A DNA stretch of 64,000 bases from Amoebophrya sp. A120 (lineage: Eukaryota; Protista; Dinoflagellata). Of the stretch, positions 2,551 through 62,121 are shown piece by piece. The stretch is taken from positions 2,408,089 to 2,472,088 of the forward strand of contig CAJINV010000001.1 of NCBI GenBank assembly GCA_905178155.1. The letters are read 5' to 3'. The notes below the pieces were generated by a model. That model was not told where the DNA came from. It did no database searches and was given only the letters and a program-made list of their open reading frames with translations. The first letter of the stretch is position 1. The number at the start of each line of letters is the position of its first letter. The translations under genes were made by a program, and so were the position numbers.

Positions 2551-5500
2551 CTACAGCCACTTGAGCGGCATAACGTAGTCGGGGGAATCTGAGTAGCCAA
2601 AGAACTCTAGATCGAAGGCAAAGTGTTCCCGGACCAGTCCTATGGTCTCTTCCGTCCACAAGGCTTCCCACGTGGTTTCGCAGTTCCGGTACTGCACTTT
2701 TTTCGCGTCGAAGGAGCAGATCGGTCGCTCCGTGTTGCTTGAGGGGAGGACTTTTGGAAACTTCTTCGGTGCCGGGTGGCAATAATTGTACTCTTCGCAC
2801 AGAAGCGCGTAAAGCTCTTCCAAGTCTGGCCCTATTGTCTCCAGATGCAGGACAAAAAAATCGTCCAAGTCCTGCACTGGCCCGTTTATTTGTAGAAAGA
2901 CCTCGTCGTTGAGCATGTCGAGAAAAGGCCGCATGTGAAAGATGTCGCTGACATCCACTTCCGACTCCAGGTGGACGCAGAACCCCTTGTCTGTACTATC
3001 GCTGTGGTCTTCCTCTTGTTCAGTAGGAGAAGCTGTACCCCCCTCACCAGGATCATCTTGTACGGATGTTGACACGTGGGAGGTCCTCTCGTCGGTCAGC
3101 TCTCGCGAGATTGTGTAGCCTGCGTCTTTCGCCTTCTGGATCATTTCTGGGGTCGACTTGTTCACGCACATTTTCGGGTTTTGTTTGTCCGCGAAGTTGT
3201 CGCTGATGTCCTTCGTGAACCCGATTCCGTTCAACTCTCGCCACTGCGACCGTAGGTACAGCATTCGGCTCAGCCACTTCCCGAAGTCCTTCCAGTCTTT
3301 ATACGGCCCCGCCCGTTTTCCGCCGCCCCCGTTCGTTGGCGGCGCACTCGTGTTATCCGCGCTGTCTTCGTCCGTCCTTTCCGCCTCCTTCGGCGGCTCG
3401 TTTGGATGCCGCTGCGTGGGAAGCCACGCGAACTGGTACATGGAGGCCATGCGGACGAAGGGGTTTCGCGCCAGCACCACCTTCTTTCGCCACTTCTGGC
3501 TCAGGCAGCAGTTCGGGCACAGATTTGCCGGCGGAAGAAACCGCATCCACGTCCAGTGCTGCTGCGTGTAGGAGTCGGGCGGAAACCGGTGCATCAACCG
3601 CTGCGACAGGTCTTGCACCACCTCGTTCTTGTCCATGTGGCCCCAGCTGATGTTTAATTATTTGCGATAATTTTACTTGATCTAGACCATGTTCATCTTT
3701 ATTGATCTGTGTTGTGCACTTGTTCTTGTTGCAGCAGCGCCGAAAACAGGTCAAGATTCCTCATCCATGCGAAAGTAAAAATTATAAGTAGAGGTGGACG
3801 TAGTCAATTGTTTGATGATATCTTCAGGGCACACGCAGACAAGTTTGTTTCCCCACCTTCAGCAGTCAGAAGACATGGGTTAGAAAAACTCTTTGCTCAT
3901 CGTCATCATCAAGAATAGATCGGCAGTAGTTATGTTGACAAGGGAGAATATGTCCTCGCATGCTAAGAAGATCCAATCAGGGCACACGCAGACAAGTTTG
4001 TTTCCCCATGACAGTTCGACTGGTGTCGGAAGACATGGGTTAGAATAAAACTCTTTGCTCATCATAGAGAACGTGAAGATCACAATCATTCACAATATCA
4101 TGCTGAAATAGAAATAGAAATTCAAATTCCGTGCCGTTGGAAATAATAAAGGTGCTATTAAGCTAGTACATCAGGGCACACGCAGACAAGTTTGTTTCCC
4201 CATCTTCAGCAGTCGGAAGACATGGGTTAGAAAAACTCTTTGCTCATCATGAGATTGGCCGTGGAACTTGTCCTAGATACGATTCAGGCTTGACCTTCGC
4301 TTTCTTGATGTATCTGTCACGTCGAGGTGCGGCGTCGTAGTTTTACTTTTCAAAAGCTGTTACTATCAATCACTTGGGAGGTACAAGAGATGCTTATTGC
4401 AGCAGTGCAGTGTGAGCAAACTACATCGACGAGATCTATCGAGGAAGAGACATTCAGCGTACTTCGAGAATGCTTGTTGTGCTGCGGCGCATCAGCAGCT
4501 GCTCTACGATATAAATTCAAATACAAGCAATCAAAATGAATAAGTACTAGTCCAGCTCCGTAGCGAGCCAATCGATCATGACCTTTGGCCGTTGCAGCAT
4601 GGCGTCCATTATGAACTGCAAAAGTATCGTACTAGTAGTAATTGCAATACAAATTAGCTCAGCATGACAAATGGGGTCTGTCATGCTGTTTTGCCTTGGG
4701 ATGGAGATTTGCAATGCAAGACATGCATTTATACGAGTACGATACTTTTGCACAGGATATCCATTGCGTTTGCGAGACTGGTTTTGATGTAGGGTTCCAA
4801 ATCCATAATGTAGTTCACCGCCGTATCAAATGCAAATGTGTCTGGGTCTGGGAGGATGGAGCTTGTGATGCGTCCTGTGGGTCACTCAAAAATCTGTGTT
4901 GCGTGATCACCAGCAAAAGTTCTCCTTTTATGACCAACATGAGCGGGAGTTTCTTATGCAGGATAGGCATGATAGAGATTTCGCAGAATCTGTCATGCTA
5001 GGTCCTGCATTCCAGACCAATTGGGGCATGGAAAATATGCATGACAAATCTGCACTCCTCCAGACCCAGACACTTTTGCATTTGATACGCCGAGCTTGTC
5101 CCGGACTTTGGCAGCATGAAGAACGCGATCGGCGCGCCCATGGGACTATCAGAAGGAAAAATTGCCCCTGCCCATATCGAAGCGGCACGTCTCAGAAAAT
5201 TTCTAATGCGGATCAGTGGCCACAAATCGCGTCTGTCTTGCAAGAAGGCAACTCCAGAGGCTCCGCCGCAATATGGTGGCTGTCTGTGATGCTGGTGGGC
5301 CTACAGCATGGACGTTTCTGATGCCAAACGCCTAGGCCAGCCCCTCTCTACTCAGGCGTGATATGGGCCTGCAGTCCTTCACTGCAAGACACAGCTGATT
5401 TGTGTACGCAAATCCAGCATCAGAAACTTCGTTTCGATATGGGGAGGGGGAATTTTTCCTTCTGATAGGGACAGTGGAATAGTTGCGTCAACATGCCGGA

Positions 5501-6848
5501 ATTCTGCCCGGGCTTCCAGATTTGACAGTTTGAATTCAGCAACACCTTCTGCCGATCGCGCAACTGCGGCTCAATGTACCGGTGCGCCTGCATGATGCAC
5601 ATCCCCCCGCCCGGGCCGTAGGCGTCGCAGTGGTCGGCCCGGAAAGTCGACACCTTTTCGAACAGCGTTGGCTCGGTTGGATCAGTACTAGCAACTGAAG
5701 CCGGCGCGCCCAAGCTGACCCGTGTCAACTTGTCCAGCGTTTCGGGGTGGAAGTCGAGGAAGTTCAGCATGTATCGTAAGGAAAAATCCTCCTCCCCATA
5801 TCAATAACGAACCCACAGAAAATCTGCAATGCTGATTTGTGACCGCAAATCGCCTCTGTCATACAAAAAAGCAACTCCACAGGCTCCGCCGAATTATAAG
5901 GGCGGTCTGTGATGCTGTTGTGCCTACAGTATGGACATTTGTAATGCTAGGCGCCTATGTATTTCAAACTCAAAGCCTTGCTTCCCAGGGTTTGCATATA
6001 ACTGCAGTCCTCTACCGCAAGACAAGTCTGATTTGTGTACGCAAATCTAGCATCACAAATTTCCTGTTCGATATGGGGAGGGAAGATTTTTCCTTTTGAT
6101 AGCATGTTCCCCTTCACTCGTTCCCGCAGGCCCGCGACGAACGCCGGCTCCGCCTCCTCGAACGCGGTTCACTATCCTGAGTAAAAACGTACCCCCACCA
6201 GAGTTGTAGTGCAGATTTGCAAAGACGGGAAGACTTGTAATGCGCATCCCCATGAGAGCCATTTCCAGTCGTGTTTTGGAATTTGTGATGCTGTGAACAG
6301 GATGAGCAGATGAATCTGTGATGCGGCTGCACTTGCTAACCTGCACTACACTGCAGAGTGCAACTTGTCATGCGTGACTCACAAAACTCCTAGGTTTGTG
6401 CTGCAAAATCCCCATCCTGACTCTGGTGTGGGTACGTTTTTACTCAGGATATCCACAAGTGCTTGTTTTCCGGCTCGAAAAGCAGCTTTGCGAGGTCCTG
6501 TTGCAGTTCCAAATTGAATTCAGCCACTTTTTCCGGGTCGCACAGGTGGTACCAGTGCAGCTCCGACTGCCGGTTGGGGACGCGGTACAAGGGCATCACG
6601 GTCTGCATCACGCGGTGGACCTGCTCCAGCATCACCGGCGGCTCCGTCTCGTTCCATGTGGGTGGGAACAGGAGGCCGCCCCGCTTGTTCTCGGACTGTT
6701 TTTTAGTAGTTTCAACATCTTGCCTGTCGTGGTCCTGCCCGGCAACGAGCAACTTCTGGCGGGAAGCAGTGAATGAACCGCTCGGCCACGCGAGAAAGAG
6801 CCACAAGAAAAGTATTCTGCGAGGATGAAGAACTGGTGCCATTTTCAT
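2551..6848 (-). CDS. Carbohydrate sulfotransferase-like protein (Sulfotransfer_2 type), 7 exons
   Basis: Hydrophobic N-terminus ILFLWLFLAW; 5'-PAPS motif LPKSGTSS (~5090-5115); 3'-PAPS motif RNPFVRMASMY. Frame is continuous after removing 5 introners and GT-AG intron 3647-4547. Paralog at 22062-24315. Confidence 0.8.
3824..3909 (-). ncRNA. Box C/D snoRNA, copy 1 (intronic)
   Basis: ATGATGA...CTAACCCATGTCTT-CTGA...GTGGGGA...GTGTGCC-CTGA, with terminal TCTT/AAGA stem. Confidence 0.65.
3977..4065 (-). ncRNA. Box C/D snoRNA, copy 2 (intronic)
   Basis: Box C ATGATGA, D' CCGA, C'-like ATGGGGA, box D CTGA; guides conserved, D'-C' loop divergent. Confidence 0.7.
4171..4250 (-). ncRNA. Box C/D snoRNA, copy 3 (intronic)
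   Basis: Same boxes and guides; similarity among copies ends at boxes C and D. Confidence 0.7.
4610..4759. mobile_element. Introner family D
   Basis: TATGAACTGCAAAAGTATCGTACT...AGTACGATACTTTTGCACAGGATA; direct repeat TCCAT. Confidence 0.85.
4824..5087. mobile_element. Introner family A
   Basis: TATCAAATGCAAA...TTTGCATTTGATA; direct repeat CGCCG. Confidence 0.9.
5147..5467. mobile_element. Introner family C
   Basis: TATCAGAAGGAAAAATT...AATTTTTCCTTCTGATA; direct repeat GGGAC. Confidence 0.9.
5772..6101. mobile_element. Introner family C
   Basis: TATCGTAAGGAAAAATC...GATTTTTCCTTTTGATA; direct repeat GCATG. Confidence 0.9.
6173..6451. mobile_element. Introner family B
   Basis: TATCCTGAGTAAAAACGTACCC...GGGTACGTTTTTACTCAGGATA; direct repeat TTCAC/TCCAC. 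Confidence 0.9.
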
Positions 6849-7366
6849 TTTTCCCTTAGTTCTATAGATACAACCGACCGTAGCGATCTGCGTACTTGCG
6901 CCGCGGCGATTGCGAGTCGAGTGTGGTCATTGAACAGAAAATTACGAAAAAACCGAACAGAGGAGATTTACCGTTCGACATTTGTGACCGATGAAATTCG
7001 AAAAGTCAGGACAACGAACGCGCTCCGTGATCAAGAATGAATGATGCTCAATCTTGATCTGTAGAAAACGAACAACAGGAGTGCCGCGGACTGCTTAAAA
7101 TGCAGACACGCGAGGCTTTCGCGCACCGCCCTGTCGGAAGCGCCACAGCCGCCAAAGGATTTTTTTTTCGTATGAAAGCAACTCTTTACATTCTGTAGAC
7201 AATACCTACACAAATGAATTTCCTGCCTTCAAATCAATTCAAATTCTAGCTTCAGCTCAACCGTTCGTAGATTACACCACTGTCAGGAGCGCTAGATTAG
7301 ATGCCTTTCAACAACTAGACTAGTGTCATGTTGAAGCTGCAAGAACAAGTGACGAAAAGTAGCCAC

Positions 7367-7477
7367 TTATTTCTTCTTCATGGACATCATCTTCATCTTC
7401 ATCGACATCTTCATGGACATCTTCTTCATGACCGGCGCGGCGTCTGCGGCCTTCATCATCTTCATCATCTTCGCCAT
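7367..7477 (-). CDS. 36-aa Met/Lys-rich micro-protein (DVNP N-terminus-like), copy 1
   Basis: MAKMMKMMKAADAAPVMKKMSMKMSMKMKMMSMKKK-TAA; AAAATG start context; peptide identical in 4 copies. Confidence 0.7.
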   Translation of the reverse strand: MAKMMKMMKAADAAPVMKKMSMKMSMKMKMMSMKKK

Positions 7478-8594
7478 TTTCAAGGTTTGGGGGTTTTGTT
7501 TGGAAAAAACTTTTCCGATTCGTTTCCCTATGTTCGGCAAAGCAAAATAATTTAACGACCAAATATCACAGCAAAGGGGCAAGAACCGGGAGCGGGTCAT
7601 GTGGTTTGTGAGTGGAGCAATGAGAAAGTGATTGTGGCTTTGCCTTACTAGACGAGTTCGACGAACGATCGCGATGGCGTGCTTGAATAAGTTCGATTCA
7701 CCACGACGGCCTTGTACGATCACTCGAATTTTCGCGAACGATTTGAGCACACCGAGATGACCTTGCGATGTCCTATCTTGTGTACGAACGACTTACTTGC
7801 TGCATGCATCATTTGAGAACCAAAGCCGATGGGTATCATCCTCCTCAGATGCTTACGGACCGTGGATCGGCGACACCGAGCAGAGGAGATTTACCGTTCG
7901 AAGTACCGATGAAATTGGAAAAGTGAAAACAACCAATGCATTTAATGCTCAGCATGAATGATCCCAATCTTGTTCTTGACCGACCGAGATAAACGCATAA
8001 CAGCAGTACCCAAAGGTGCGCCAAATGCAGACACGAAAGGGAAAGCCGTTCTCGCGCCGCCCTCTCAGAAGCGCCACAGCCGCCCAAGGATTTTTTTTCC
8101 GTATGAAAGCAACGTGGTGCTTTGTTCACGGAAGTGCGGTTTTCCGCTTGAAGTAGGTGCTGGTTTGTTCACGCGAAACTAGCTCTACCGCCACTTCTTC
8201 AAAGAAGTAAAATACTACTTGGCCAAACAGTCTTTTGCGTAGACCTGAGAAAAAACTAGAAAAATACTGAGACGATGCTCTGCCTCTTGGGAAGCTTGAA
8301 AGTTGGTGAAAAACGAAGCAAAAAGTAATAGCAAGCGTCTGACGTTAGCAAAAATCAAAATCATCTAACTGCTTTCCGTTTTTCAAGGTATATGGCAAAG
8401 TAGAAGCCGTCAGATTAGGACGCTCGTGATCTCACTACCTATCACATTATCTTGCAACTCTAAATAATATGCGTTTCGTTTTGGAGTGCGAACCATTTTT
8501 ACCAGAGCAGTACCATTACCACTAGCTACCAGAAGCCGAGCCATCTCGATCTTAATCTTTAGCAGGAGTAGGATATGGATATAATTCGTTCTCG

Positions 8595-9053
8595 TTACAT
8601 AATGACGCAGCGGCACATTTCTTTGTCTACTTGCGCCACCTGTGCCTTCGTTTCCTTCAGTTCCGCCTGGATTGCATCCATCTTCGCCTCGAACTTGTTG
8701 AGCTTCTCCACCAACAGGTTCCCCGCCGTCGCGGCCTCTGCCACGCTCCCCAGTCCCGCTTCCAACGCCCCGATGCGGAGCGCCGTTGTTTCTGCGTTCA
8801 CTGCAGTCTCCTGCAGTTTCAAGGTCACGGCACTCGGATCAATCGCCGTGCTGAGATTCGCCATCGCCGCGCGCAACGACTTCACGTCCTGGTGCGTCTG
8901 TATCACCCGGGGCAAGATGCTGGATTCGCACTTGGACACACTGGAAAGTATTTCGGCACTCCCTCTAGCAACTTTCTCGTCGGCCAACCAAATGGCCTGC
9001 GCTTGACGCACGTCGTCGGCACTCAGCAACGCTGATCCCGAAGCTGATTCCAT
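8595..9053 (-). CDS. Hypothetical coiled-coil protein, paralog 1
   Basis: AAAATG start MESASGS; heptad-like C-terminus LVEKLNKFEAKMDAIQAELKETKAQV; ORF kept in the duplicate. Confidence 0.65.
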   Translation of the reverse strand: MESASGSALLSADDVRQAQAIWLADEKVARGSAEILSSVSKCESSILPRVIQTHQDVKSLRAAMANLSTAIDPSAVTLKLQETAVNAETTALRIGALEAGLGSVAEAATAGNLLVEKLNKFEAKMDAIQAELKETKAQVAQVDKEMCRCVIM

Positions 9054-9951
9054 TTTGTGGCGAGACACGCAGGCACAGGCAGAGGGACGCAAGCGCAATA
9101 TATGACTGAGAGCGCTCAAAAACGAAACTCTTGAAATCTAGACTGCTCTGCCTCCCATTGTGAAAAATTCTCCGGCTCGCTTCCCCAACTATACTATTGA
9201 AAAGCAAAAGCCTGAAGGCCAAAATATTACAGCGAACTACGGACGACCGGAAGGAGGGGGTCACGCGGATATCAGTTTGCGGATGAAACGAAGACACAGA
9301 AGTAGTTGTGGCTTTAAACTGAGATAGATTGCCATACACGAGCTCTACGGACAACGATGCGTTTGCACGCTCCCGAATATTTGCAAGTGATTTCGTCACA
9401 AACGCGGCCGACAGCTTGCGATAATATCCTATGTCGCATACGACCGAGTTCCTTACGCTTACATCTCTAGAAGACCAAAGCCGATTATTAGCATCCTCGT
9501 CAGATGCCTATGGGCCGTGGACCGGCGACACCGAGCAGAAGAGGTTGACAGTTCGAAATACCGATGAAATTCGAAAAGTTAAAACAGACAATGCACTCAA
9601 TGCTCAGCATGAATGATCCCTTGTTCTTGACCGACCGAAATAAACGCACAACAGCAGAAGTACCCAAAGGTACGCCAAATGCAGACACGAAAGGGAAAAA
9701 CCTTTCTCGTGCCGCTCTCCCAGAAGCGCCACAGCCGCCCAAGGATTTTTTTTTGTATGAAAGCAACTCTTTACATTCTGTAGACAATACCTACACAAAT
9801 GAATTTCGTGCCTTCAAATCAATTCTAGCTTCAGCTCAACCGTTCGTAGATTACACCACTATCGGGAGCGCTAGATTCGATGCCTTTCAACAACTAGACT
9901 ACGACTAGTGTCATGTTGAAGTTTGAAGAACAAGCGACAGAAAAATGCCAC

Positions 9952-10062
9952 TTATTTCTTCTTCATGGACATCATCTTCATCTTCATCGACATCTTCATG
10001 GACATCTTCTTCATGACCGGCGCGGCGTCAGCGGCCTTCATCATCTTCATCATCTTCGCCAT
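9952..10062 (-). CDS. 36-aa Met/Lys-rich micro-protein, copy 2
   Basis: Same peptide; Ala11 codon GCT. Confidence 0.7.
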   Translation of the reverse strand: MAKMMKMMKAADAAPVMKKMSMKMSMKMKMMSMKKK

Positions 10063-10893
10063 TTTGAAGGTTGGGGGGTTTTGTTTGGAAAAAACTTTTC
10101 CGATTCGTTTCCCTATGATAAAGCAAAACAATTTAACGACCAAATTATATTACAGCAGAGGGGCAAGTAGAACCGGGAGCGGGTCATGCGGATAGTGGTT
10201 TGTGAGTGGAGCAATGAGAAAGTGATTCTCACTTTGCCTTTACTCGACGAGTTCGACGAACGATCACGATGGCGTGCTTGAATGAGTTCGATTCACCACG
10301 ACGGCCTTGTACGATCACCCGAATTTTCGCGAACGATTTGATCACACCGAGATGAGCTTGTGATGTCCTATGTTGTGTACGAGCGACTTACTTGCATGCA
10401 TCATTCGAGAACCAAAGCCGAGGGGTATCATCCTCATCAGATGCTTATGGACCGTGGATCGGCGACACCGAGCAGAGGAGGTTGACCGTTCGAAATACCG
10501 ATGAAATTCGAAAAGTTAAAACAAACAATGCACTCAATGCTATAGGATAAATGATCCCAATCTTGTTCTTGACCGACCGAAATAAACGCACAACAGCAGA
10601 AGTACCCAAAGGTGCACCAAATGCAGACACGGAAGGGAAAGCCTTTCTCGCGCCGCCCTCCCAGAAGCGCCACAGCCGCACAAGGATTTTTTTTCGTATG
10701 AAAGCAACTCTTTACATTCTGTAGAGTACCTACACAAATGAATTTCGTGCCTTCAAGTCAATTCTAGCTTCAGCTCAACCGTTCGTAGATTACACCACTG
10801 TCAGGAGCGCTAGATTTTTAGATGCCTTTCAACATCAACTAGACTAGTGTCATGTTGAAGTTCTTTGAAGAACAAGTGACGAAAAGTAGCCAC

Positions 10894-11004
10894 TTATTTC
10901 TTCTTCATGGACATCATCTTCATCTTCATCGACATCTTCATGGACATCTTCTTCATGACCGGCGCGGCGTCGGCGGCCTTCATCATCTTCATCATCTTCG
11001 CCAT
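10894..11004 (-). CDS. 36-aa Met/Lys-rich micro-protein, copy 3
   Basis: Same peptide; Ala11 codon GCC. Confidence 0.7.
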   Translation of the reverse strand: MAKMMKMMKAADAAPVMKKMSMKMSMKMKMMSMKKK

Positions 11005-11996
11005 TTTGACGGTGTGGGGGTTTTGTTTGGAAAAAACTTTTCCGATTCGTTTCCCTATGTATGGTAAAGCAAAATGATTCAACGACCAAATATCACAGCG
11101 AGGGGGCAAGAACCGGGAGCGGGTCATGCGGATAGTGGTTTGTGAGTGGGGCAATGAGAAAGTGATTCTGGCTTTACCTTACTAGACGAGTTCATCGACG
11201 AACGATCACGATGGCGTGCTTGAATGAGTTCGATTCACCACGACTCGCTTGCACGACCGCCCGAATTTTTGCGAACGATTTGATCACACCGAGATGAGCT
11301 TGTGATGTCCTATGTTGTGTACGACGACGAACGACTCACTTGCATGCATCATTCGAGAACCAAAGCCGATGGGTATCATCATCATCAGAGGCGTTCCATG
11401 AAACCGAGCAGAGGAGGCTGACTGCGCGAAATACAAACGAAATCCGAAAAGTGAAAACAACGAGATCTTCGCCATCTTGGCGACTTGGTGGTCTTTTTTG
11501 GAAAAACTTCTGTTTTTTTGATGTTCCGGGAAGTGCGGTTTTCCGCTTGAAGTAGGCGTTGGTTTGTTCACGCGAAACTAGCTCTAGCGCCACTTCTTCA
11601 AGGAAATAAGAAAGTAAATTAATACTTGGCCAAACACTCTTTTGCCAAGTAGACCTGAGAAAAAACTAGAAAAATACGGGTGAGAGGATGCTTTGCCTCT
11701 TGGGAAACTTCAAGGTTGGTGAAAAACGAAGCAAAAAGTAATAGCAAGCGTCTGACGTTAGCAAAAATCCAGTAAACTGCTTTCCGTTTTTTAGGGTATA
11801 TGGAAAAAAAGCCGCCAGATTGGGACGCTCGTGACCTCATTACCTATCATATTATCTTGCAAGTGCAACTCTAAATATGCGTTTCGTTTTGGAGTGCGAA
11901 CCATTTTTACCAGAGCACTAGCATTGCCACTCGCTACCCGAAGCCGAGCCATCTCGATCTTTAGCAGGAGTAGGGTATGGATATAATTCGTTCTCG

Positions 11997-12464
11997 TTAC
12001 ATAATGACGCAGCGACACATTTCTTTGTCTCCTTGCGCCACCACCTGTGCCTTCGTTTCTTTCACTTCCGCCTGGATTGCATCTATCTTCGCCTCGAGTT
12101 TGTTGAGCTTCTCCACCAACTGGCTCCCCACCGTCGCCGCCTCTGCCACGCTCCCCAACCCAGCTTCCAACCCCCCGATACGGAGCGCCGTTGTTTCTGC
12201 GTTCACTGCAGTCTCCTGCAGTTTTACGCTCACGGCACTCGGATCAATCACCGTGCTGAGATTCGCCATCGCCGCGCGCAACGACTTCACGTCCTGGTGC
12301 GTCTGTATCACCCGGGGCAAGATGCTGACTCCGATATAGTCTCTATGGTCAGCGAGGCGATGGCGATCGGAAGGATAGCCGCCTTCTCTGTCCTTTTGGA
12401 AGATGGCATACGTTTGACGGTAGTCGTCGGCAGTCAGCGACACCGATTCCGGTGCGAGCGCCAT
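11997..12464 (-). CDS. Hypothetical coiled-coil protein, paralog 2
   Basis: AAAATG start MALAPES; near-identical to paralog 1 from SILPRVIQTHQ onward. Confidence 0.65.
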   Translation of the reverse strand: MALAPESVSLTADDYRQTYAIFQKDREGGYPSDRHRLADHRDYIGVSILPRVIQTHQDVKSLRAAMANLSTVIDPSAVSVKLQETAVNAETTALRIGGLEAGLGSVAEAATVGSQLVEKLNKLEAKIDAIQAEVKETKAQVVAQGDKEMCRCVIM

Positions 12465-12503
12465 TTTGTCGCGAGGCACACACCGCCAGACAGACACAAT
12501 ATA

Positions 12504-13224
12504 CCAATAATAGCCGCGTCCGCGGAGGTAGTGAGGTCATGGCGGTCTTTTTGTCTTCACGCCAAAAAAGGACGCAACTTCTCTGCCCACCATGCCATCG
12601 TGAGTAATGTTATGCACGACGGCACGGCGGTCGCTAAAAATCTCAATCCAGAGGCGGCCCCCATTTGGTTTCGAATCGAAGAACCTTCCCCGCATGCTAT
12701 GGCCCCGCCAGGGCCCACGCCAGGGTCGGCCCCTTGGGAGCCCCAAATCGGGCCCATAGCATGCGGATTGGCTTTTTGCTTTTGGCGGTCTTTGTTTTTT
12801 TTGTTTTTTTTTTGGCAAAATGCTGCATCTTCTGGTCTTCAGTCCGCCTCTGAAATGGCGGATTTTGAAGGCGTCTTTTGCGCGGCCCGAATGTGGGGAA
12901 AAATGAGGCCCATACCATGCGGATTCTCTGTTTTTTTCGGAGTGCTGCTTTTTGGGCGCCCATTTTTGGGCGCCGCAAATCGCCAGAAACTAAGGCGGTG
13001 GGCGCCTCAGAAGGGCGCCCCTTTTGCCGGCTCCCCTGCGTCGTTTTATCAAGCGGGAATCGATAGAATCCGCCCGGGCTATTTTGCCGCAAACGCCCCG
13101 GCCGCTTGATAATTGAAAACTTTTTTTGTTAAAAAACACTTCCGGCCGCTTGAAAACTGCCGGTCGTTTTGCGTGATGCATGTCAAAAAAACCGCTAGGA
13201 TAGAACGTTCGTGACCTCACTACA
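12504..13224 (-). mobile_element. ~720-bp non-autonomous element with asymmetric inverted repeats (Helentron/DINE-like), copy 1
   Basis: Absent from the paralogous site at ~9097-9105 (CAATATATGA). Flanked by TA. Inverted pair GTAGTGAGGTCA (subterminal) and TGACCTCACTAC (terminal), with hairpin CCGC-n4-GCGG. Confidence 0.8.
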
Positions 13225-14049
13225 TATGATAGCGCTCAAAAATGAAACTCTTGAAATCTGGACCCTGTTCCCTATTGTGAAAAATTCTTCGGCTCGCTTC
13301 CCTAACTATTGAAAAACAAAAGCTTGAAGGTCAAAATGTCACAGCGAACAAATGATCGGAAGCAGGGGGGTCATGCGGATATCAGATTGCAGATGCAAAG
13401 AGGAAAGAGTAGTTGTGGCTTTAAACTGAGATAGATTGCCATAAACTAGCTCTACGGACCACGATGCGTTTGCACGCGCCCGAATTTTTGCAAATGATTT
13501 GGCCACAGATCACCGAGAGCTTGCGATAATATCCTATGTCGCATACGAACGACTTCCTTCCATCTCTGGAAGACCAAAACCGATTACTATCATCCTCATC
13601 AGATGATAGTGGACAGTGGATCGGCGACACCGACCAGAGCAGGTTGACCGTTCGAAATACCGATGAAATTCGAAAACTTAAAACAAAAAACGCACTCAAT
13701 GCTCAGGATGAATGATCCCAATCTTGTTCTTGACCGACCGAAATAAACGCACAACAGCAGAAGTACCCAAAGGTGCGCCATATGCAGACACGAAAGGGAA
13801 AGCCTTTCTCGCGCCGCCCTCTCAGAAGCGCCGCAGCCGCCCAAGGATTTTTTTTTCGTATGAAAGCAACTCTCTACATTCTGTAGACAATACCTACACA
13901 AATGAATTTCGTGCCTTCAAATCAATTCTAGCTTCAGCTCAACCGTTCGTAGATTACACCACAATCAGGAGCGCTAGATAAGATGCCTTTCAACAACTAG
14001 ACTAGTGTCATGTTGAAGTTTGAAGAACAAGCGGCGATAAAGTAGCCAC

Positions 14050-14160
14050 TTATTTCTTCTTCATGGACATCATCTTCATCTTCATCGACATCTTCATGGA
14101 CATCTTCTTCATGACCGGCGCGGCGTCGGCGGCCTTCATCATCTTCATCATCTTCGCCAT
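14050..14160 (-). CDS. 36-aa Met/Lys-rich micro-protein, copy 4
   Basis: Same peptide; Ala11 codon GCC. Confidence 0.7.
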   Translation of the reverse strand: MAKMMKMMKAADAAPVMKKMSMKMSMKMKMMSMKKK

Positions 14161-14503
14161 TTTGAAGGTTTGGGGGTTTTGTTTGGAAAAAACTTTTCCG
14201 ATTCGTTTCCCTATGGTAGCGCGAAAAATTTGAAGCCAAAATATCACAGCGAGCGGGCACCGGGGGCGGGTCATGCGGATATTGGTTTGAACAAGGTGAA
14301 GCAATGAGAAAACGATTGTGATTTCAGATTATGGGGGGGGTTGCTTTTACTTTCTACGGACGATGACGTGTTACTTCGAATGAGTTCTACGAACCACGAT
14401 GCGTTTCTAAGTACGACCGCCCGAATCACGATGTCTGAATTTGGTCTTGGTCATACCGAGAGATTGCAATATCCTAGGTTGTAGACGATGACGAACGACT
14501 TTA

Positions 14504-15223
14504 CCAATAATAGCCGCCTCAGCGGGGGTAGTGAGGTCGAGGCGGTTTTTTTGTCTTCACACCAAAAAAAGACGCGAATTCTATGCGCGCCATGGCATCG
14601 TGAGTAATGTTATGCACGACGGAACGGCGGCCGCTAAAAATCTCGATCCAGAGCTGGCCTCCATTTGGTTTCAAATCAAAAAACCTTCGCCGCATGCTAT
14701 GGACCCATCAGGGCCCTTGCCAGGGTCGGCCCCGTGGGAGCCCCAAATCGGGCCCATCGCATGCGGATTGGCTTTCTACTTTTGGCGGACTTTCGTTTTT
14801 ATTGTTTTTTTTGTCAAAATGCCGCATCTTCTGGCCTTAAGTCCGCCTCTGAAGTGGCGGGCTTTGGTGGCGTCTTTTGCGGGGCCCGAATGTGGGCCAA
14901 AATGAGGCCCATACCACGCGGATTCGCTGTTCTTTTCGGAGTGCTGCTTTTTGGGCGTCCCTTTTTCGGCGCCCCAAATCGCCAGAAACCAAGGCGGTGG
15001 ACGCCTCAGAAGGGCGCCCCTTTTGCCGGCTCCCCTGCGTCGTTTTATCAAGTGCGAATCGATAGTTTTCGACCGGGCTTGTTTGTTGGCAAAGCCCCGG
15101 CCGCTTGATAGTTGGAAATTTTTTATGTGCAAAAACACTTCCGCCCGCTTGAAAACTGCCGGTCGTTTTGCGTGATGCATGGCAAAAAAACCGCTAGGAT
15201 AGAACGTTCGTGACCTCACTACA
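14504..15223 (-). mobile_element. Helentron/DINE-like element, copy 2
   Basis: TA-CCAATAATAGCCGC...TGACCTCACTACA-TA; colinear with copy 1. Confidence 0.8.
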
Positions 15224-15225
15224 TA

Positions 15226-15915
15226 CAAACTACAGCCCTCCCCGAGTACAAAAAAAAGTCCCTTTGTTGGTGACCACCATAGCGTCGCGCATAACATTAC
15301 TCCCGATGGGGCGGTGGACCATAAAAAACACGGCCGGAGGTCGCGCACCTGCTGCTGTCAGCGGAGCAACGCTTTCCCGCATGCTATGGCCCCCAAGGGC
15401 CTCCGCCCGGGCCGGCCCCTTGGGCGCCCCAAATCGGGCCCATAGCATGCGGATTAGCTCTCGGACTTTGGCGGCCATTGTTTTTTTTAGTTTTTTTGTA
15501 GGAAAAGTCGCAACTTTTGCCCTGCTCCCCGCCTTACAAATGCCCGATTTTGGTGGCCGGCTTTGCGACCTCCAAACGTGGGCCAAAATGGGGCCCATAC
15601 CAATACCATGCGGATTCGCGCTTTTGTTCGTCTTGGCATTTTTGCGGCGCCCCTTTTTGGGCGCCCCAAATCGCCAGAAACCAAGGCGGTGGGCGCCTCA
15701 GAAGGGCGCCCCTTTTGGCGGCTCCCTTGCGTCGTTTTATCAAGTGCGAGTCGATAGTTTTCGACCGGGCTTGTTTGATGGCAAATCCCCGGCCGCTTGA
15801 TAATTGGAAATTTTTTATGTCAAAAAAGCCTTCCGGCCGCTTGAAAACTGCCGGTCGTTTTGCGTGATGCATGGCAAAAAAACCGCTAGGATAGAACGTT
15901 CGTGACCTCACTACA
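15226..15915 (-). mobile_element. Helentron/DINE-like element, copy 3 (divergent left end), head-to-tail with copy 2
   Basis: Right ~350 bp near-identical to the other copies and ends TGACCTCACTACA-TA; left end differs. Confidence 0.7.
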
Positions 15916-16249
15916 TATAATATACCTCGCTGAAAAGCCAAAACCGACTCACGTCAATATCATGCTTGGCAATATATACCAAAAACCGATTCTGTCGGGA
16001 TGTGAACAGGCGCTATCGTCGTAATGCGTCCATGGACGATGACAGTCTATGCGACGGCGAACAATCTCGCTCGCTTTTGACGACTTCTATCTTTCTGCTC
16101 CTTTCACGTTCAAAAACTTAACATCTACATCTGAGAAATTTTGTGGTACTATCGTTCGAGTGAAACCATTATTTCCACAACTGTAAGTTGCCAGAGGGCT
16201 GTGTACTCCTCGGTGGAAGAAGATACAACGAACTTCATGTTCAAACCTT

Positions 16250-21400: not shown

Positions 21401-22061
21401 GGCTTGTTTATTTGTCGGGCTGTTTTTGCTGGGTAACTAAGATGTATGATTTGAAGATACAACTCTGAATACAGAGCTGCAGGACATCAACCCCCGGGAG
21501 GTATGGTTGATCTTAGATTGCGTGTTGAAGAACTTGTGCTCTTTCACGACGCACATGGAGCTTGTGTCGGTTGTACTAATCCTAATGCAGCAGTTTTCAT
21601 GGCACTAAACATAAATTTTTTTCCTGTGATGATTGAAGCTGAAGAAAAAATTGACAATCACTTACATTGGTAGATCATTTGCGATTCTGGGGCACAATGG
21701 AAGAAGGCTGCAGAGGTCGAGTCCAGGTTTTGAGAGCTGAGAACTCTATTTTTTTTTCTGTGATTCTGGAAGATCGATTATAAAGGCATGAAGCTAAGGA
21801 ACGTGAGTTTGACTTGTTCGTTGAAGCTAAGTTGGTGTGAACGCTGCCGCGCTCTCATTCGTGTGGGTCTAGTTGCTGGAGAGCACAATTTACAGCACCG
21901 AAAATGGAGATGGTGCTTGAGTGCTTTTTTCTTTCCTTTTGACGATCGCCTTACGGGATTCTCAATTTTTTGGTTCATTTACATCTTTCAGTTCTCCGTT
22001 ACTGCGTACATTAGTGATAGACTCAACAACGCGAGCGCGACGAGGATAACTTACATACTAG

Positions 22062-42422: not shown

Positions 42423-43178
42423 TTGCTTAGTTTGTCTGTTTGCAATTGTATAAATGAAAAACGGATGGAAATCTAACTGAAAACAGAAGTAGAAGTTCCA
42501 GATCAGCTCACTAGCGAAAGTGGATCAATTTGATCGAGTTCAAAAGGCAAACTGTTTAAAAAATTCGAAGAAGAAACGTTGGGAAAACCTTAGATCAAGT
42601 TGTCCGAATTTTTTACTACCTGCAGCTGTTTTTTCGAAATTAAAAAGAGGGTGCTGGCGGTGGCCTCAATCCTTTGACTTCGTGAAGAGGAAGATGAACA
42701 AACAACGACAGACCACGAATTGCGATAGCGAAAGCGATTTTGCGAAGCATATTTGAAAGCACTCTCGTGCGATTTTCAGACTCTGTATGCCGCTGCCCCA
42801 ATTATTTGCGTGACAATTTGCAACAACTCCATCGACGAATGCTAACAAAAATGCTTGCGTGGCGTCGACGTTTCTCAGTACAAGCAAAAAGAAAAGTCCG
42901 ACAAAAGACAGAACAAGAAAACCTTCAATCAAGCGAAAAAAGAAAAACACCGAAAACGATTTGAGGAGCACATGACCAACCACGGCGTCTTCTCTCGGTT
43001 AAATGTATTCATTTCGCTGATAGCATACAACGTGCATTGATATTCAGTACAGAGCCTACAGCATCACGAGACGTTTTCAAATAAAACAGCGACATAGGGT
43101 CATCCTCGTCTTTGTTTCACATTCGTAGTTTACTTGTTTTTGAAACAGAAAAATCCAGCGGCACTTAACTCAAGAAAC

Positions 43179-47116: not shown

Positions 47117-47252
47117 AGACTTCTTGATTGTTGCGGAAAATCAATAGATAGGAACGGCCTGGTGTTTGTTCAGACAAATATTCGTCTGGTCTTTCTTGGT
47201 GATCTTCATCGTGGTTTTAAACTACAAAAACGCGAAGTAGAATGTAGGGTCG

Positions 47253-49294: not shown

Positions 49295-49992
49295 TTAATG
49301 CAAACGATAGGAGTTCCTGGACAAGAACTTGCCGAAGAAGAATCGCCCTGTAACAACTTTCTAGAGAATGCCGAAGAAACAATGACTCTGCATTCGACCA
49401 CCGAAAAGATGCAGCGGAAAGCGACGATTTCGATTTGCGAAGGTAGATAATGCGCGACGGCAGAAACTTCGATGTGAAGAAAAAATCGCAATCACGACTT
49501 GTTCACAAAACGATGCATCACGACGATCGCCGACACGCGAAATTCCTTCACGGCTAAGCGTTTTATTAATTTTTTCCACACGAAATAGTGATTCAGTCGG
49601 TACTACGTAAAAGACCTATCAACCGCGAAGGTCAGCATCATTTCTCTGCGTGACAAGCGCACAACAGCTACACTAGATTTGTAGGCACACAACTGCTCCA
49701 CCAGCGTCCGCATGTCGTCGTGACCTATGCCATGAACAGAATCGGAAAGCAGCTGTCCATTAGTACCCACCATAGCATTTCATTCTCTCCTTATGCCTTT
49801 TTTCCTTATCAACATGAGTTGCAAAATGAATATGAAGCAAAAAAAATGCACAAGAAGAATTATTCCACGGTAACTGAGTACTATCTCACATTATGCAGCA
49901 GGAACGTGCTCGTCTTTATTCTCACTGGGGGTTTTCAAGAAGTTTTTATGAAGAATGTGTATGAGTCTTTCTATGATCATCGCCACTGTCAT

Positions 49993-51310
49993 TTAAGCCA
50001 GCCGCCTCTTCTTCCGGTTATTTTTTCCTTGCAAAGGTCGTTCGTCGTCTTCTCCATCAGTCAATAGCCTCTTCCCGCCGGTGGAAGCCAAGGCGTCCAG
50101 TCCTCCGTGAATGCGGGAAGATCCATCTTCCTCTTCGGATTGCTCATCGGAACATTCCTCATCGGATGAAGATTCTTCGTCGGAAGCTTCCTCACAGGAA
50201 GACTCCTCAACATCGGAAGATTCCTCATCGGGACGAGATTCCTCTTCGCATTGCTCCCCAAACTGCACCGTCATGTCCAACGTAACCGATGCCAAACTGG
50301 ATTCGTTGTAGGACATCCCGTAGTAGGACAAAAATTTTCGGAGGTGCTCCGGATATGAAATGCAAAAGTGTCTGGGTCTGGAAGGATGTAACATGTGATG
50401 CGCATTTCGGAACACACAAAAATCTCTCATGCATGGGTAGCAAAAGCTGCGCACTTTCTGGCTCCAAAGTGGGGGGTTTGTCATGCGGGTTCGGCATTGC
50501 GGAAGCTTCTCGAAACCTGTGATGCCAGAGCTTCCATGCCAGACCTTCTGTGTCATGCAGAAACAGCATGACTCTTCCAGACCCAGACATTTTTACACTT
50601 GATACCGGACCCGCGGCGACCATTTTTGCCGCAAATCTCCGATAGTGCGGTATCGCGTACCGCAAAACATCGACTGTTGCCACTTCCTCCGTGCTGATGC
50701 GAATATAAGAAGGTTCTTCGCTCCGCGCGACCATCTGCTCGTACGCCGCGACGAGATGCGGCTTTTGGCGGCAAGTCTCTGCGAACAGGTTTACCTTGTC
50801 GCAAAATTTCTGCCCGTGCTTCTTCACTAACTGAGGGGTCCCAAAAGAACGCAAACGCAACTCTTTAACAGCCTGGTCGATTTTCTTATCGCGATAAAAC
50901 GAATTTGGAAAAACAGTCTCCGCGAAAAAAGTGAAGGCGCTGTTGTAGAGAAAGTGGTCCACAACGTCCTGCAGTGTCCGTCGCTGTTCCTTGAAGAGAA
51001 ACGTTCGTCGCTTCGACATCAGCGCGTCCGACCTTCGCAGTTTCAGGATTTTCTGCCGCGACCCGGTAAACCGCGTGCTTGCCTCAGTAAGGTACATGGC
51101 GAGAAGCCACTCTCGCAGCTCGTCTTTGTTCTCAAAGTCTCTCAGCTCCGCCGGGGACGCGTCCGTAAAGAGCCAGGTGAAACACAAAGCCACCATGTAA
51201 GAGTGCAAGGCCTCGAACAAGCCAGGCGGGTGCAGGCGCACAGTCACGTCCTGTTCTCCCTCGGCTGAATATGAGGTTGGAGAACTTGAACTTCTCTTCC
51301 CCGTCGTGCT
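49993..51310 (-). CDS. Hypothetical protein segment with acidic tail; possibly the 3' exons of the RING gene
   Basis: ORF 50225-51247 joins 49993-50556 across an introner (AAGP-EHLRKF); an in-frame AG acceptor lies near 51311. Confidence 0.6.
50354..50604. mobile_element. Introner family A
   Basis: Family A TIRs; direct repeat CCGGA. Confidence 0.9.
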
Positions 51311-51599
51311 CTAGTCATTATTTCTTGTGATGCTCAAAAAAGAACGCCAACCACTGCCTTTCGTTTCCCTTTTGGCAGCATTTTTGCAATGACAAGTTCC
51401 GCAAGGAGCCGATGCCGAACTAGCCTCACAGCCCCCCCGGTCTCATTCTCATACCGATGCCTGGGCCCGCCCGGGCATGGTGTTGAGACCATCTTGCTAT
51501 GCAAAGGAAACACTGATTTTCAACATTTGGCTTCATCATCTGATGCTCTTCAAATGAGCCGACGGAGGGAAGTTTTTTGCACTACCATAGCCAGCTCAC

Positions 51600-54500
51600 C
51601 TTTACCGAAAACACTATCAAATGTAAAAATGTCTGGGTTTGGAAATTTCTGAGACTTGTCATGCACGTTTTGCATGGGCCATGATGTCTGTGATGCATGC
51701 CCTAGCATCACAGACTTTTTGAGGGCTTCGCGATGCCTATTCCGCATGGCAAATTCCCTCTCCGCGTAGCCAAAATTGCATTCCCTTTGCTGCTTATGCA
51801 ATACAGATTTCTTTGGAATGCAAATGCAGCATCACAACTTCCAATCTTTCAGAGCCAGACATTTTTACAGTTGATAAACACCTGTTGCAGGCAGTGGAGA
51901 AATATGCATTGCAAAAATGTCTGCGTCTGGAAGAATGCATGTTTGTCATGCTTGTCTGGCATGACTCTTAAATCTGTCATGCACGTTACCCAAAAGCTCC
52001 ACTTTTCTGTGATGCAGAAACGCAGTTCGTCATGCAAAGTAAGTAGGCAACACCCAGAAGCTCAGAAACTTGTCATGGTGAGCCAGCACTTGTGGCCTCA
52101 TCATGAGACGCCACCCAGCATCACAAGTTTCCAGACCCAGACATTTTTGCATTTGATAAGAAAGTCTCGCGGCGAGACGGCGCGTGCTCCTGCACCTCCT
52201 CCCAGGGGCAGATGCTGCTCCCACTCGCGGGACAGGAGACTGAGCAGCGCGGCCTGGGCGATCACCGTTTCTTCCAGCGGCGTGTCCCGGAAAATTGCAG
52301 AAGAAGAAGCTGCAGTAAATCGGTGCCTCCGCAAAGCGTTATCCATTTCAAACTTTTTCACGTAATCTGCGAAAGAAAAGGGCACGGTAGAAGTTGCACC
52401 TACGGAGGTCCCGCAGCCGCAACTTTCCTCCATCTCGCGCACCGCATTCTTCCGCTCTTCGTATCGCAGCAGCGCCGCACTCAGACCCAGTGGATGCGAG
52501 AAGGGAGTCTTCGGCTCCTGCACTGGAAAGAGCGGCTTTGGTTTTTCCTTGTCTACTTCATCATTTTTCCCAGTAGGAGTTGCACTGCCGTCATAATCGC
52601 GGAGGTCCTCGTATGTTGTATCCAACTTGTCCACCACAAACGGGTGCAGCGTGCGGGCGTAAAACTGCTTCCACACGTCGTACTCATGTTCACTGCAGTC
52701 AAAATCCAAACTCACTCGCAACGCCGATGCGATCGCTTTCAAGTGCGGCAGCTCCCACCGCTGAAAGGGGCGGCTCGATCCCCGCAGCGGGAACACCATC
52801 GTCATCCATATTTCGTCGAGGGCGGGCTTGCAATCTTCCGTGAACTCCTCTTCTTCTTGGATCGTGGGCAAGGTGGGTAGCGGCGGCCCACTGCTGGAGG
52901 TGGTCTGGTAGAACCTACGGCGCTCGTACAAGTCCTCGTGGTCGTTTCGTCCGGCACTCAAAAGGAGAGGCCCGTCCTCGACCGGCCTCTCGATGGGGGC
53001 TTCAACACCCCCGCCGTCGACATCAAACGGCGCCTCGATGAACGGGGGCCTTGGTGTCCCCGTCGTCCTACTCGTGCCTCCTTTGGCGGTGCGCCGCACC
53101 AAGCCGAGGTACTGCTGCCACCGGCGTTCCGTCCCCGCTAGCCGCACCTTCCGCTCCGACGCTAGGGCGAGCTGGACCAGCCGCGCAGCCTCTTGCCGCA
53201 ACAAGCGCACGCGCTTCGATCGGGCTTCGTAGTACAGCGCGATGGGATGGACGGTCGAGGTAAAGCAGGCATCTGCTGTTGTACTGATGGTGCAACGGTC
53301 AGGATTAAGGTGCTGGTAGAAAGAAGAGGCTGCGCCCGTAGTTGACGAAGAGCTGGATGTTGAAAAACCGCCTCGTTTGTCGCTTCTTTCCTGCACGCTG
53401 GCTGCCAGTTGTCGGCTATTGTAGTTACTATCACAATGTGCGGAGTTTCCTTCCCCATAGCACAGCAGCGCGGCCACGTCATGCACTTTCCGTTCGTGGT
53501 TTTCGTCCGCAGAGACAATACGCAGGGCCTGCTCAAAGGCCGCTTTGTTTGTGAACTTGCACTCCTCTTCGTAGTGGTCCCGAAACTTCGCCAGCTCTCC
53601 GCTCCAGCCGCATCCGCGGTCTTTGTGGCAGCAGAAAACGGAGACTTCCGGACAAACGCGGTGCGCGTGGTGCTCGAACCGGTCGAACCGCGCAATCGCC
53701 GCCTTGCACTTGCTGCACGACCCTTTCTGCATCATCACCATGCGCTTGATGGGCAAGGCCGGCGTGACGCCATGGAACTTTTTGCGGCACAGGGGGCAGG
53801 CCTTGTACGTGGATCCGTCTTCCCGCTTCTTCACCATGTGTTCTGACTCCACGCACTCGCGGCACATCGCTTGCCCCCCGCAGCAGTTGAGCAGGACCGG
53901 GTCCTGCACGGTTTGCAGGCAAATCGGACACTTGCACTCCTCTTCCGCCTCCTTGTTGTCAAACACGAAGTCGGGCAGCGAGTCTGGTAACCTCTCGCAC
54001 TGCTGCGCCTGTGCAGCCGCGTCCCCCAAGTCGTCCTCGTTCGCCCCCTTGTAGTCCGGCCGGACCTTGGTGATCCCGTGGCAGATCTCCGAGAAGGAAT
54101 ACAGCGAAAGGAGATCCCTGCTCCGGGGCTGCTCCATCACTTTCCACAAACTCGTCTTCGACGTGGGAGAAAAGGGATCCGCCTTCTCCAGGGTATCAAA
54201 TGCAAATATGTCTGGGTCTGGAACGTTTGTAGATTTGGCATGCATATTTTCGATGACCCATTATGTCTGTGATGCATGCCGTAGCATCACACATTTTCCG
54301 AGGGCTTTGTGATACCTCTACCGCATGAGAAATGCCCTCTCGGCGTCGCACAAACTAACTGGAGCCCTCTTGCTGGTCATGCAATACAATTTTTTTTGGA
54401 ACCCAGAGACAGCATCACAAGTTTAGAATCTTACAGACCCAGACATATTTGCATTTGATACAGGGCCTGCTGCAGCAAATCGTTGTAGAAGGGGATGGGC

Positions 54501-60300: not shown

Positions 60301-62121
60301 TTCTTCTTGTCCGCTCGCCTCGCTCTATTCCGCGCAAGACAGCGTCCACCAGAAAATTACTCTGTGGTCCTTCTCGCGCCAACCCTCTGGCTGGAGCGCA
60401 CAATAGCTCCAAAATTCTCGGTGTTGATCTAGTATCGGTACTAGTAGTTGTAGCTGTTTGTCGTGTTTCTCCATTTCGCCTCCCTGTCTGGTCGTCCATT
60501 TCTACTGCGTGCCCGTTCCCACATTGCTGGTTGCTCATGATCTGCTCGTCGAGATGAGAAGGTTCGTCGCTTGTTCTTGCATTCGACGTTGTTGTCGAGG
60601 GAAGTAGATTTGCAGGGGCACTACTCACGCTCGGACGAGATGTTGACCCGCCCATGGCTTCTAAAAAACCTTCTGCGTCCTCGTTCGTGTCCTCAGCATC
60701 AGCTTGCGGCAGCTGCAACAGTCCCCGCTGTGTCTTCCACCAAAAAGATCCAGGCTCTGTGACGGAAAAGATCCCCTCTTCAGCCGCACTTCTCGGGAAG
60801 AAGACCTCCGCACTATAAATGTTATTCGTCGTTGTACTCGATGTCGAACAAACGGTCGTTCCGCCGGCGGCTGAGGTCGTTGAAGACGATGTCGATGCTG
60901 TGCTGCTGGTTGCGATCGCATCCGCGTTCTCGCGCGGCACTGCGAGCTCTGACATTTCATTTCCAGCAATGTCACCAGCTGCATCAGCTTCTAGTTGTGA
61001 TGTGGTTCCTCTTGAATCATTGCTCAAAAATTCGCCTGTGAGACGCGATATTGTTCCGGCCGCGTTAGATTGCATGTGAGCATGCCTCGCAAGGGTCGTG
61101 TCAAGCGATTCGTAGTCTGAAGACGAGGTGGAGTCTTCCTCATCGTCTGAAGACGACGAATCCTCCCCATCCTCGCCGTCTTCGCTGTCGCTATCGTTCT
61201 CGGAAGACGAGAACTATGCCTTGCAAAAGTATCACACTCGTACTAATTGCAAATATGCCATGCATGAGCATGGTAACGTAAAACAGCATTACAAATTCCA
61301 CTTCTCTTGTTCTTGCCAAAATTTCTTGTAATGCTATTCATACTAGTAAGTACGTTGCTTTTGCAATGCATAAGAACGGTTCTCGTACAACATCCGCCTC
61401 TTCATGAAGATCTGCGTCTACTTGTTCGATCCGTGGATTTAATACCATTGGCTCGTCGTTATCCTGCAGTAGCCCCGCCGCTCTGAAGGTCGCGTTTAGG
61501 TTCTCTTCGAACCAACTCCGGGGAGTTGGGGAGGACTGTGTTTTTGTTTCGGTTTCCAATTCTTTTATACAACTCGATACCCGTTTATAATTTTCATTTT
61601 GCTTTTTTACGAGCAACAGAACACGCGAAGATGCTTTATTTCCTGTCAACACCACCTGCACACCATTTTTGCGTACGTTCGCCAATTCATGATCTTTTTT
61701 CAAAGCTATGGACGTTGAAATCAATCCAATGGAATGATCCAAGAGGTTGTAACTACAAGGGTAGTACCGTATTAACTCCACTCCGCGACAGTCCTGCGGC
61801 TCTTCCCGCCGGGCGCGTAATATGCCGGCCGGGCGAGGATTCGATAAAGGGCATACGCGGCCTCTCCGGACGAGGATGTGTCCCGTTCTTGGGGCGTCTA
61901 GTGGGCGTCGTGCCTGTGGTTGCGAAAAGTTTGTGACCAGGACGGTGCCATTGCATGTAGAGGTAGACAGTGACAGATCTTCGGTAATAGAATTGCGTAC
62001 TACGCGACGCCGAACAGCAACGGGGCGGTTCGTAAACATAACCACGCTCGAGAAAAACGACAGCAATTAGGCACAATCTTTCTCTTTCATTCCTTAGGGT
62101 CAATAAAAATAACATCATCAT
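57369..62121 (-). CDS. Large low-complexity (S/T/A/R-rich) hypothetical protein, several exons
   Basis: Consecutive long minus-strand ORFs 61338-62066, 58988-61075, 58336-58917 and 57369-58304. The first two join in frame across introner 61215-61372 (REPF-SSSENDS). Confidence 0.55.
61215..61372. mobile_element. Introner family D-like
   Basis: TATGCCTTGCAAAAG...CTTTTGCAATGCATA; direct repeat AGAAC. Confidence 0.85.

Follow-up and report, generated by a model that had tools for sequence, protein, structure and literature searches.

Among the systems described so far, the subterminal repeats of hAT transposons (Hermes, Ac, Tol2) are among the closest to the motif reported here. BED domains of Hermes bind short repeats in subterminal position, and their phasing to the terminal inverted repeat (TIR) matters critically; the AAGT word of Hermes also occurs in Tol2 (PMC10368747). 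Similarly, the Lemi1 transposase binds subterminal motifs of the Emigrant miniature inverted-repeat transposable element (MITE) cooperatively and in trans (PMC1636448). The introners of the dinoflagellate Amoebophrya sp. A120 are described as having inverted repeats that begin with TAT, followed by about seven variable bases and an A run, as well as short direct repeats, many families and non-canonical splicing (Farhat et al., 2021, PMC7789003; Gozashti et al., 2025, PMC12130899). In this work we analyzed a 64,000 bp stretch of A120 (contig CAJINV010000001.1, positions 2,408,089–2,472,088; hereafter the window), whose introners share an internal motif, GCATNACA in one orientation and TGTNATGC in the other. 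This motif is a real, selected, DNA-level code common to many introner families. We consider it rather probable, judging from sequence, that it is a putative subterminal docking site on double-stranded DNA, read by a domain shared among related, probably hAT-like, transposases.

The elements of the window fit the published A120 introners in their ends (TAT, about seven variable bases, A run; cf. PMC7789003), in their direct repeats (3–5 nt; 5 bp here) and in their removal without GT-AG borders. They differ in that the available text of PMC7789003 and PMC12130899 deals with ends and repeats; it does not mention an internal motif common to families, a lattice, phasing to the tip or a target word particular to an end class. 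Either spelling of the motif gave 0 matches in the text supplement of PMC7789003, whose figures S19–S25 may bear on the motif, and no description of it was found in the titles and opening parts of abstracts returned by literature searches. With hAT subterminal repeats the motif shares a short repeat that lies interior to the TIR, occurs in both orientations, differs between the two ends and is exactly phased to the TIR, with a word common to different elements, as in Hermes and Tol2 (PMC10368747). It differs from them in several respects: the hAT word is AAG[T/C] (PMC10368747), in contrast to the longer GCATNACA plus tail found here; a regular 16/32-bp lattice runs through the whole 110–330 bp body; and the carriers are spliced introns. 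Emigrant is likewise a MITE with internal repeated motifs (PMC1636448). The TA..TA termini recall IS3EU and GingerRoot elements, which however usually generate 6-bp duplications, unlike the 5 bp seen here, and the TAYGG..CCRTA ends of the fungal elements are unmatched (PMC10045372, PMC12730594).

Enrichment, conservation and spacing of the motif

The window contains 27 whole elements (148–330 bp), which have TAT...ATA ends in inverted repeat and duplications of 5 bp, exact in 22 of them, and one more element cut by the window edge. A scan with the end of one family (F1 below) gave 157 loci (L001–L157), partly overlapping and together 539,808 bp, all taken from a single metagenome assembly. This family is oversampled in them, and they yielded 323 further elements. 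The loci do not overlap window genes and their longest element matches are 77–95% identical, therefore they belong to the same or a close species. In total, the 350 elements formed 13 families of at least three copies (F1–F13), and 26 were single copies. TAT starts all 26 family ends, and A occupies positions 11–15 in 18–24 of the 26; TAT was required by the element finder, and the A run is the independent part of the match.

In the window we counted 97 strict matches to GCATNACA/TGTNATGC, of which 90 lie inside the 6,866 bp of elements, the truncated one included (13.1 per kb). The remaining seven are spread over 57,134 bp (0.12 per kb), which is the chance level (5.5 expected under an order-1 model), so that the motif is enriched about 100-fold in the elements. 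When 30 nt were cut from either end, the element bodies still held 87 matches, as compared with a mean of 2.0 and a maximum of 6 in 300 dinucleotide shuffles. Each of the 27 whole elements has one to six strict sites, and at least one site was found in 312 of the 323 further elements. The extended consensus is GCAT[G/C/T]ACA[A/G][A/G]TTT, i.e., a word of seven fixed bases with a free fifth (N) position, followed by a tail.

A preliminary description of the window had claimed that this motif recurs several times per element, on both strands, in six otherwise unrelated families (A–F, corresponding to F1 with F2, F4, F6, F3, F5 and F7) and, judged by eye, is apparently rare in flanking exons. Its 18 listed positions all hold the motif within 0–2 nt. 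The strict matches are at 44341, 44465, 43996, 44045, 44126, 44157, 5940, 6050, 18851, 18882 and 18917 and, in families E and F, at 45051, 45109, 45144, 45374, 45420 and 45469, and the starts given as 5939, 18916, 45050, 45142, 45373 and 45468 were 1–2 nt too early. The rarity outside the elements is borne out by the count above. The motif was indeed present in all six families, but there are more families than six. The presence on both strands does not extend to F4, which carries sites in a single orientation in 27 of 29 copies (93 versus 1 strict sites), nor to F10 (single orientation in 6 of 6).

It should be mentioned that four of the seven outside matches belong to a separate repeat of about 735 bp with a rare variant, GCATAACA. 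Its copies are located at 12492–13230, 14502–15228, about 15300–15921 and 17383–18118. A DEAH-helicase gene carries one copy, inverted relative to the others, in a predicted GT-AG intron (about 17340–18297); close to the ends of this copy there is an inverted repeat of 12 bp.

Pooled conservation was 0.94 for motif columns (238 columns), 0.77 for the other body columns (1,118) and 0.73 for the N position (34). The seven fixed columns exceeded the other body columns in 10 of 10 families, all significantly, although the P values overstate independence because the copies are kin; the N column did not. The excess persisted for G/C and A/T columns taken apart and after exclusion of CpG, and CA/TG columns outside the motif reached only 0.77. 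Together with the enrichment, this column conservation supports the common cis code that had been proposed. It also largely refutes the notion that the motifs are relics of an ancestral internal repeat with no present function, which we regard as very improbable. Such relics would be consistent with the body ancestry that some families do have in common: after masking of the motif, which lowers power, 3 of 78 family pairs (F6–F8, F5–F11 and F6–F13) beat all 60 shuffles, and local matches of 50–60 nt occur between other families as well. Thus, the families are mostly unrelated, as claimed, with F6–F8 and F5–F11 as exceptions. The spacers between sites, however, have diverged in sequence and kept their length (21 spacers; identity 0.31 versus 0.24 after shuffling).

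The spacing was counted in the 13 family majority sequences, with at most one mismatch per site. Same-orientation pairs were in excess at 31–33 bp (21 versus 3.0 expected; 0 of 3,000 randomisations) and depleted at 8–29 bp (10 versus 24.6). Inverted pairs were in excess at 14–17 bp (10 versus 2.9) and, in one of the two arrangements, at 45–50 bp (11 versus 3.3); the opposite arrangement at 45–50 bp was not significant (6 versus 3.4). A degenerate inverted site is located in the middle of the spacers, and the sites thus form a lattice of alternating orientation with a step of 16 bp. The lattice is phased to the element tip. At 19 of 26 family ends the first site is TGTNATGC, directed inward, at a distance of 33–34 (6 ends), 41–47 (10) or 53–56 (3), and the remaining seven begin with a site of reverse orientation at 35–48. 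The 19 ends gave a Rayleigh R of 0.79 at a period of 10.5, and 27 ends from families with fewer than three copies gave 0.52 with the same phase.

Splicing, transcript strand and RNA folding

Nine of the 11 elements within 43000–52300 were skipped as exactly the element plus 5 nt, without GT-AG, in contigs that likely derive from RNA (runs X3–X6, one sample; the RNA nature of the runs was guessed). They comprise three F4 insertions and six others in the following order: F4 at 43563–43842 (285 nt skipped; four sites, GCAUNACA on the minus-strand transcript); F4 in the opposite orientation at 43918–44196 (284 nt; four sites, UGUNAUGC on the transcript); F1 at 44250–44515 (271 nt; three sites); F4 with a decayed duplication at 44635–44919 (290 nt; three sites); F5 at 44987–45197 (216 nt; three sites); F7 at 45340–45556 (222 nt; three sites); the single-copy F14 at 45619–45781 (168 nt; three sites); and F1 at 48429–48688 (265 nt) and 50354–50604 (256 nt), with four sites each. 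No skipping joint was listed in these contigs for the F1 element at 51615–51876, whose flanks score as non-coding, and the F2 element at 51903–52158, both with four sites. Contigs of the DNA-like run X1 run into the elements, where the summed depth is tens of thousands as against about 44 elsewhere, which identifies the elements as high-copy repeats. The raw RNA reads X11 and X12 matched repeat pieces only and no exons, and were left out of the analysis.

All nine skipped elements hold three or four strict sites, as would be expected if a single-stranded RNA-binding splicing factor recognised the motif. Nevertheless, we give this explanation next to no probability. In 222 of the 299 scored copies the host strand was called confidently, and there the transcript carries 334 GCAUNACA and 343 UGUNAUGC sites; copies with only one orientation on the transcript number 36 and 36. 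No family showed an orientation bias, and F4 was inserted 13 times in one way and 11 in the other. The F4 elements at 43563 and 43918, in the same gene, have opposite complements of sites (4/0 and 0/4), and both are skipped. Resemblances of the motif to PUF and Rbfox sites were dropped in view of the strand symmetry and the free fifth position.

Another explanation is that the intron adopts a rod shape through pairing between inverted copies of the motif in the pre-mRNA. Folding gave in-register motif-motif pairing of 0.3–0.74 in families with mixed orientation, and trimmed bodies were more stable than shuffles (mean z from -0.4 to -5.9; six copies per family, both strands). On the other hand, the facing N bases of inverted sites were complementary in 1,164 of 3,161 cases versus 1,151 expected, i.e., without covariation, and for the F2 pair 34/81 in only 4 of 49 copies. 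Moreover, F4 (0.14–0.17) and F10 (0.01–0.21) hardly form motif stems, but the F4 copies that could be tested were all skipped (3 of 3). A rod therefore deserves very little credence, and we read the motif stems as a by-product. Rfam gave 0 matches in 43000–52300.

Thus, of the three mechanisms suggested in the preliminary description, a strand-specific splicing factor and selected internal stems found no support, and only DNA binding by the transposition machinery would fit the sequence data. The motif had also been offered as the cause of orientation independence; the symmetric ends and the duplication explain orientation-independent splicing better.

The imperfect duplications at 44635–44919, 45619–45781 and 48429–48688 together bracket the cut: on the transcript the intron would consist of one base, the element and then four bases. 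For an element inserted at xxAG|G, a canonical GT...AG intron would result, one rule being assumed for all on the basis of three elements.

Target sites and other features of the window

From the window and the loci, 340 empty target sites were rebuilt. T-N-G was found at -15/-13 from the duplication centre in 190 of them, on one side in 176 and on both in 14, as compared with 6–16% at neighbouring offsets. It occurred in 94 of 118 F1 sites, 33 of 47 F2 sites and 26 of 41 F3 sites, but in only 4 of 29 F4 and none of 7 F8 sites. Other classes had words of their own at -18 to -12: GA in the F4 group (19/31), A-T in the F5 group (24/39), AA in the F6 group (12/22), TT in the F7 group (9/15), TA in F8 (7/7) and A--A in F9/13 (8/9). 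Each of these words holds up when corrected for the 1,344 patterns that were tried in every group. The fuller words, located 12–18 bp from the duplication centre, resemble A-A-A-T-Y-G-T in F1–F3, and are T-G-A-A in F4 and A-N-T-A in F8. The side of the word was independent of element orientation (61 versus 51 in F1) and of transcript direction (97 versus 88). The F1–F3 word resembles the outer half of the motif, but a link between the two was rejected, as 11% of column-permuted matrices scored equally well.

These data suggest asymmetric target capture by several transposases, because the end classes differ in both their ends and their targets. If there are several movers, the common motif must be read either by a domain conserved among the transposases or by a shared cofactor. 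The latter would be one host or element-encoded accessory DNA-binding protein, an architectural cofactor of all the transposases, and the role of the motif would still be in transposition. We grant this a small though appreciable probability. The end classes differ in TIR and target preference, yet the motif and the tolerance at N are alike in 10 of 10 families, and the word is longer than the 4-bp Hermes repeat (PMC10368747), both of which would suit a cofactor. However, the chance-level count outside the elements gives no evidence of host sites, and one subterminal word is known to be common to different hAT families, as shown by Tol2 (PMC10368747).

At TIR positions 4–9 the same few variants recur across F1, F2 and F3, and the two ends of one copy often differ, which may point to swapping of ends or to conversion among families.

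The other elements of the window are as follows. F1 is represented by the truncated element at 1–83 (window edge; two strict sites, 11- and 48+) and by elements at 332–593 (duplication CGACT; sites 496- and 512+), 1137–1407 (one duplication mismatch; four sites), 4824–5087 (three sites), 18487–18749 (four sites, including the inverted 16-bp pair 18561-/18577+), 37199–37460 (two sites) and 54194–54460 (three sites). F2, which combines A-type ends with a different body, occurs at 29965–30200 (three sites) and 33991–34242 (six sites), and F3 at 4610–4759 (two sites) and 18810–18957 (18851+, 18882+ and 18917-). F4 elements with sites in a single orientation are located at 6173–6451 (four sites spaced 48/33/49) and 23662–23930 (five sites). 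The F6 elements are at 5147–5467 (one strict and five one-mismatch sites), 5772–6101 (5908-, 5940- and 6050+) and 33631–33951 (two sites), and the single-copy F15 is at 61215–61372 (two sites).

Besides the elements, the window contains dispersed and tandem repeats at 7100–14330, with a spacing of about 940 bp and two related open reading frames (ORFs) of 180 aa (8595–9137 and 11997–12536), the first of which has no Pfam match. A 15-bp tandem array with a Gly-Pro-rich frame is located at 96–227, and a shorter inverted copy of it at 950–1023, about 800 bp away. A unit of about 80 bp is repeated three times between genes at about 3826–4250.

Decay of the motif and its role as a putative docking site

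Decay was followed in 404 of 436 profile-detected copies (32 had less than 68% identity or not enough end columns and were dropped). The mismatch at motif positions rose from 0.051 in 146 copies with symmetric ends to 0.112–0.118 in 63 copies with asymmetry above 0.13, and that of other conserved body columns rose from 0.072 to 0.130–0.159 with end decay. The 50 copies in a non-coding-looking context retained the motif as well as coding copies did (0.052 versus 0.059). In the 26 closest pairs, differences at motif columns were three times as frequent as those at conserved end columns, versus 1.5 times in distant pairs (z 2.1). The erosion of the motif, its retention in non-coding surroundings and its weak protection in the closest pairs fit selection acting mainly during transposition.

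According to the reading that we favor, several transposases differing in end and target specificity would share one binding word, and several protomers would dock on one face of the helix to give a complex that excises and inserts the element. Copies losing sites would stop spreading, and for this reason the sites would stay conserved family-wide while each inserted copy decays. Splicing would rely on the paired ends together with the 5-bp duplication rather than on the motif. By analogy, the motif may work like hAT subterminal repeats, with which it has in common its position interior to the TIR, both orientations and conservation. The hAT label is probable on the basis of the published hAT5 group rather than of a protein: the 5-bp duplication is unlike the usual 8 bp of hAT elements and fits the 5 bp of hAT5 (as cited in PMC12730594).

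Several points weigh against a docking site for transposases. No autonomous element or transposase was found in the window or the loci, and none of the 19 window ORFs has a Pfam match to a transposase family. Farhat et al. likewise report that they found none in A120, and they rejected mobilisation by transposases as a general mechanism (PMC7789003). The tip phasing fits a period of 11 equally well (R 0.77 versus 0.79 at 10.5), so that periodicity alone would also suit double-stranded RNA. With the ends collapsed by hand, by class, to 12 values, P was 0.0015 for the fixed period of 10.5 and 0.056 for a free period, and the distance windows were picked after inspection of the data. A host protein common to all elements would account for this DNA geometry as well. 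Decay of the motif is somewhat slower than that of other conserved columns in the body (slope 0.16 ± 0.03 versus 0.24 ± 0.04), and in 57 copies with diverged ends, a comparison confounded by subfamilies, the values were 0.10 and 0.22. Finally, pairs of motifs 32–35 bp apart remain in several stretches that resemble ordinary introns and have no detectable ends.

Some candidates were discarded in the course of this work. In L073, an apparent "long element" of 6.2 kb proved to be a false call, with ends formed by the inner parts of two F3 copies. Of three further long calls (one in L053, and one and the same in L069 and L070), that in L069 was a run of adjacent short elements. A scan of viral contigs for the lattice pattern gave 0 matches. 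The ZBED1 site TGTCG(C/T)GA(C/T)A (PMC7471704) has only TGTC in common with the motif and was not used as evidence.

Outside recognisable elements, the loci contain 94 motif matches in 388 kb, twice the chance number, with at least 17 clusters and at least six pairs 32–35 bp apart among the matches listed. Intron-like stretches of the form G-TAT...AG were seen in L028 (about 1730–1890), L053 (about 4570–4740), L040 (about 455–565), L024 (about 3315–3495) and L074 (about 3775–3935), the boundaries being set by eye. They have two or three sites each, 32–35 bp apart in four of the five and 46 bp apart in L074. Stretches that carry the motif and lack ends are possibly old introners turned into ordinary introns. 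An ab initio GT-AG finder gave 48 candidates with 3 strict sites versus 1.6 after shuffling; this finder is unreliable, as the RNA-supported intron at 47911–48088 escaped it and it predicted introns on the plus strand of the window. No motif site is present in the one GT-AG intron with RNA support.

A host protein on the DNA lattice could also mark the element for co-transcriptional removal, intron definition being then written partly on the chromosome. Such a mark would work in either orientation, and it would account for the slower decay of the motif and for the motif pairs in stretches without ends (e.g., L028, L053, L040, L060 and L024); besides, U1 small nuclear RNA (U1 snRNA) was not found in the genus (PMC7789003). 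We nevertheless hold it to be quite improbable, since the motif does erode with age, is kept equally well by copies in non-coding context, is poorly protected in the closest pairs and is absent from the RNA-supported GT-AG intron, and since phasing to the DNA tip points to a transposase. A related and rather unlikely scheme is that one host protein polymerises along the 16/32-bp lattice, loads several transposases and flags the element for removal from the nascent RNA. If so, intron identity would be written in double-stranded DNA. This would explain why splicing works in both orientations and needs neither GT-AG nor U1, as well as the survival of motif pairs in old introns whose ends are lost.

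The matter at stake is the spread of non-canonical introns, which number tens of thousands in Amoebophrya A120. A phased DNA word common to many families can serve as bait in pull-downs and as a sequence criterion by which candidate master elements are tested. The data separate two jobs, the internal sites likely serving mobility and the paired ends likely serving splicing. The class-specific target words may imply that several enzymes rather than one made these introns under one docking code.

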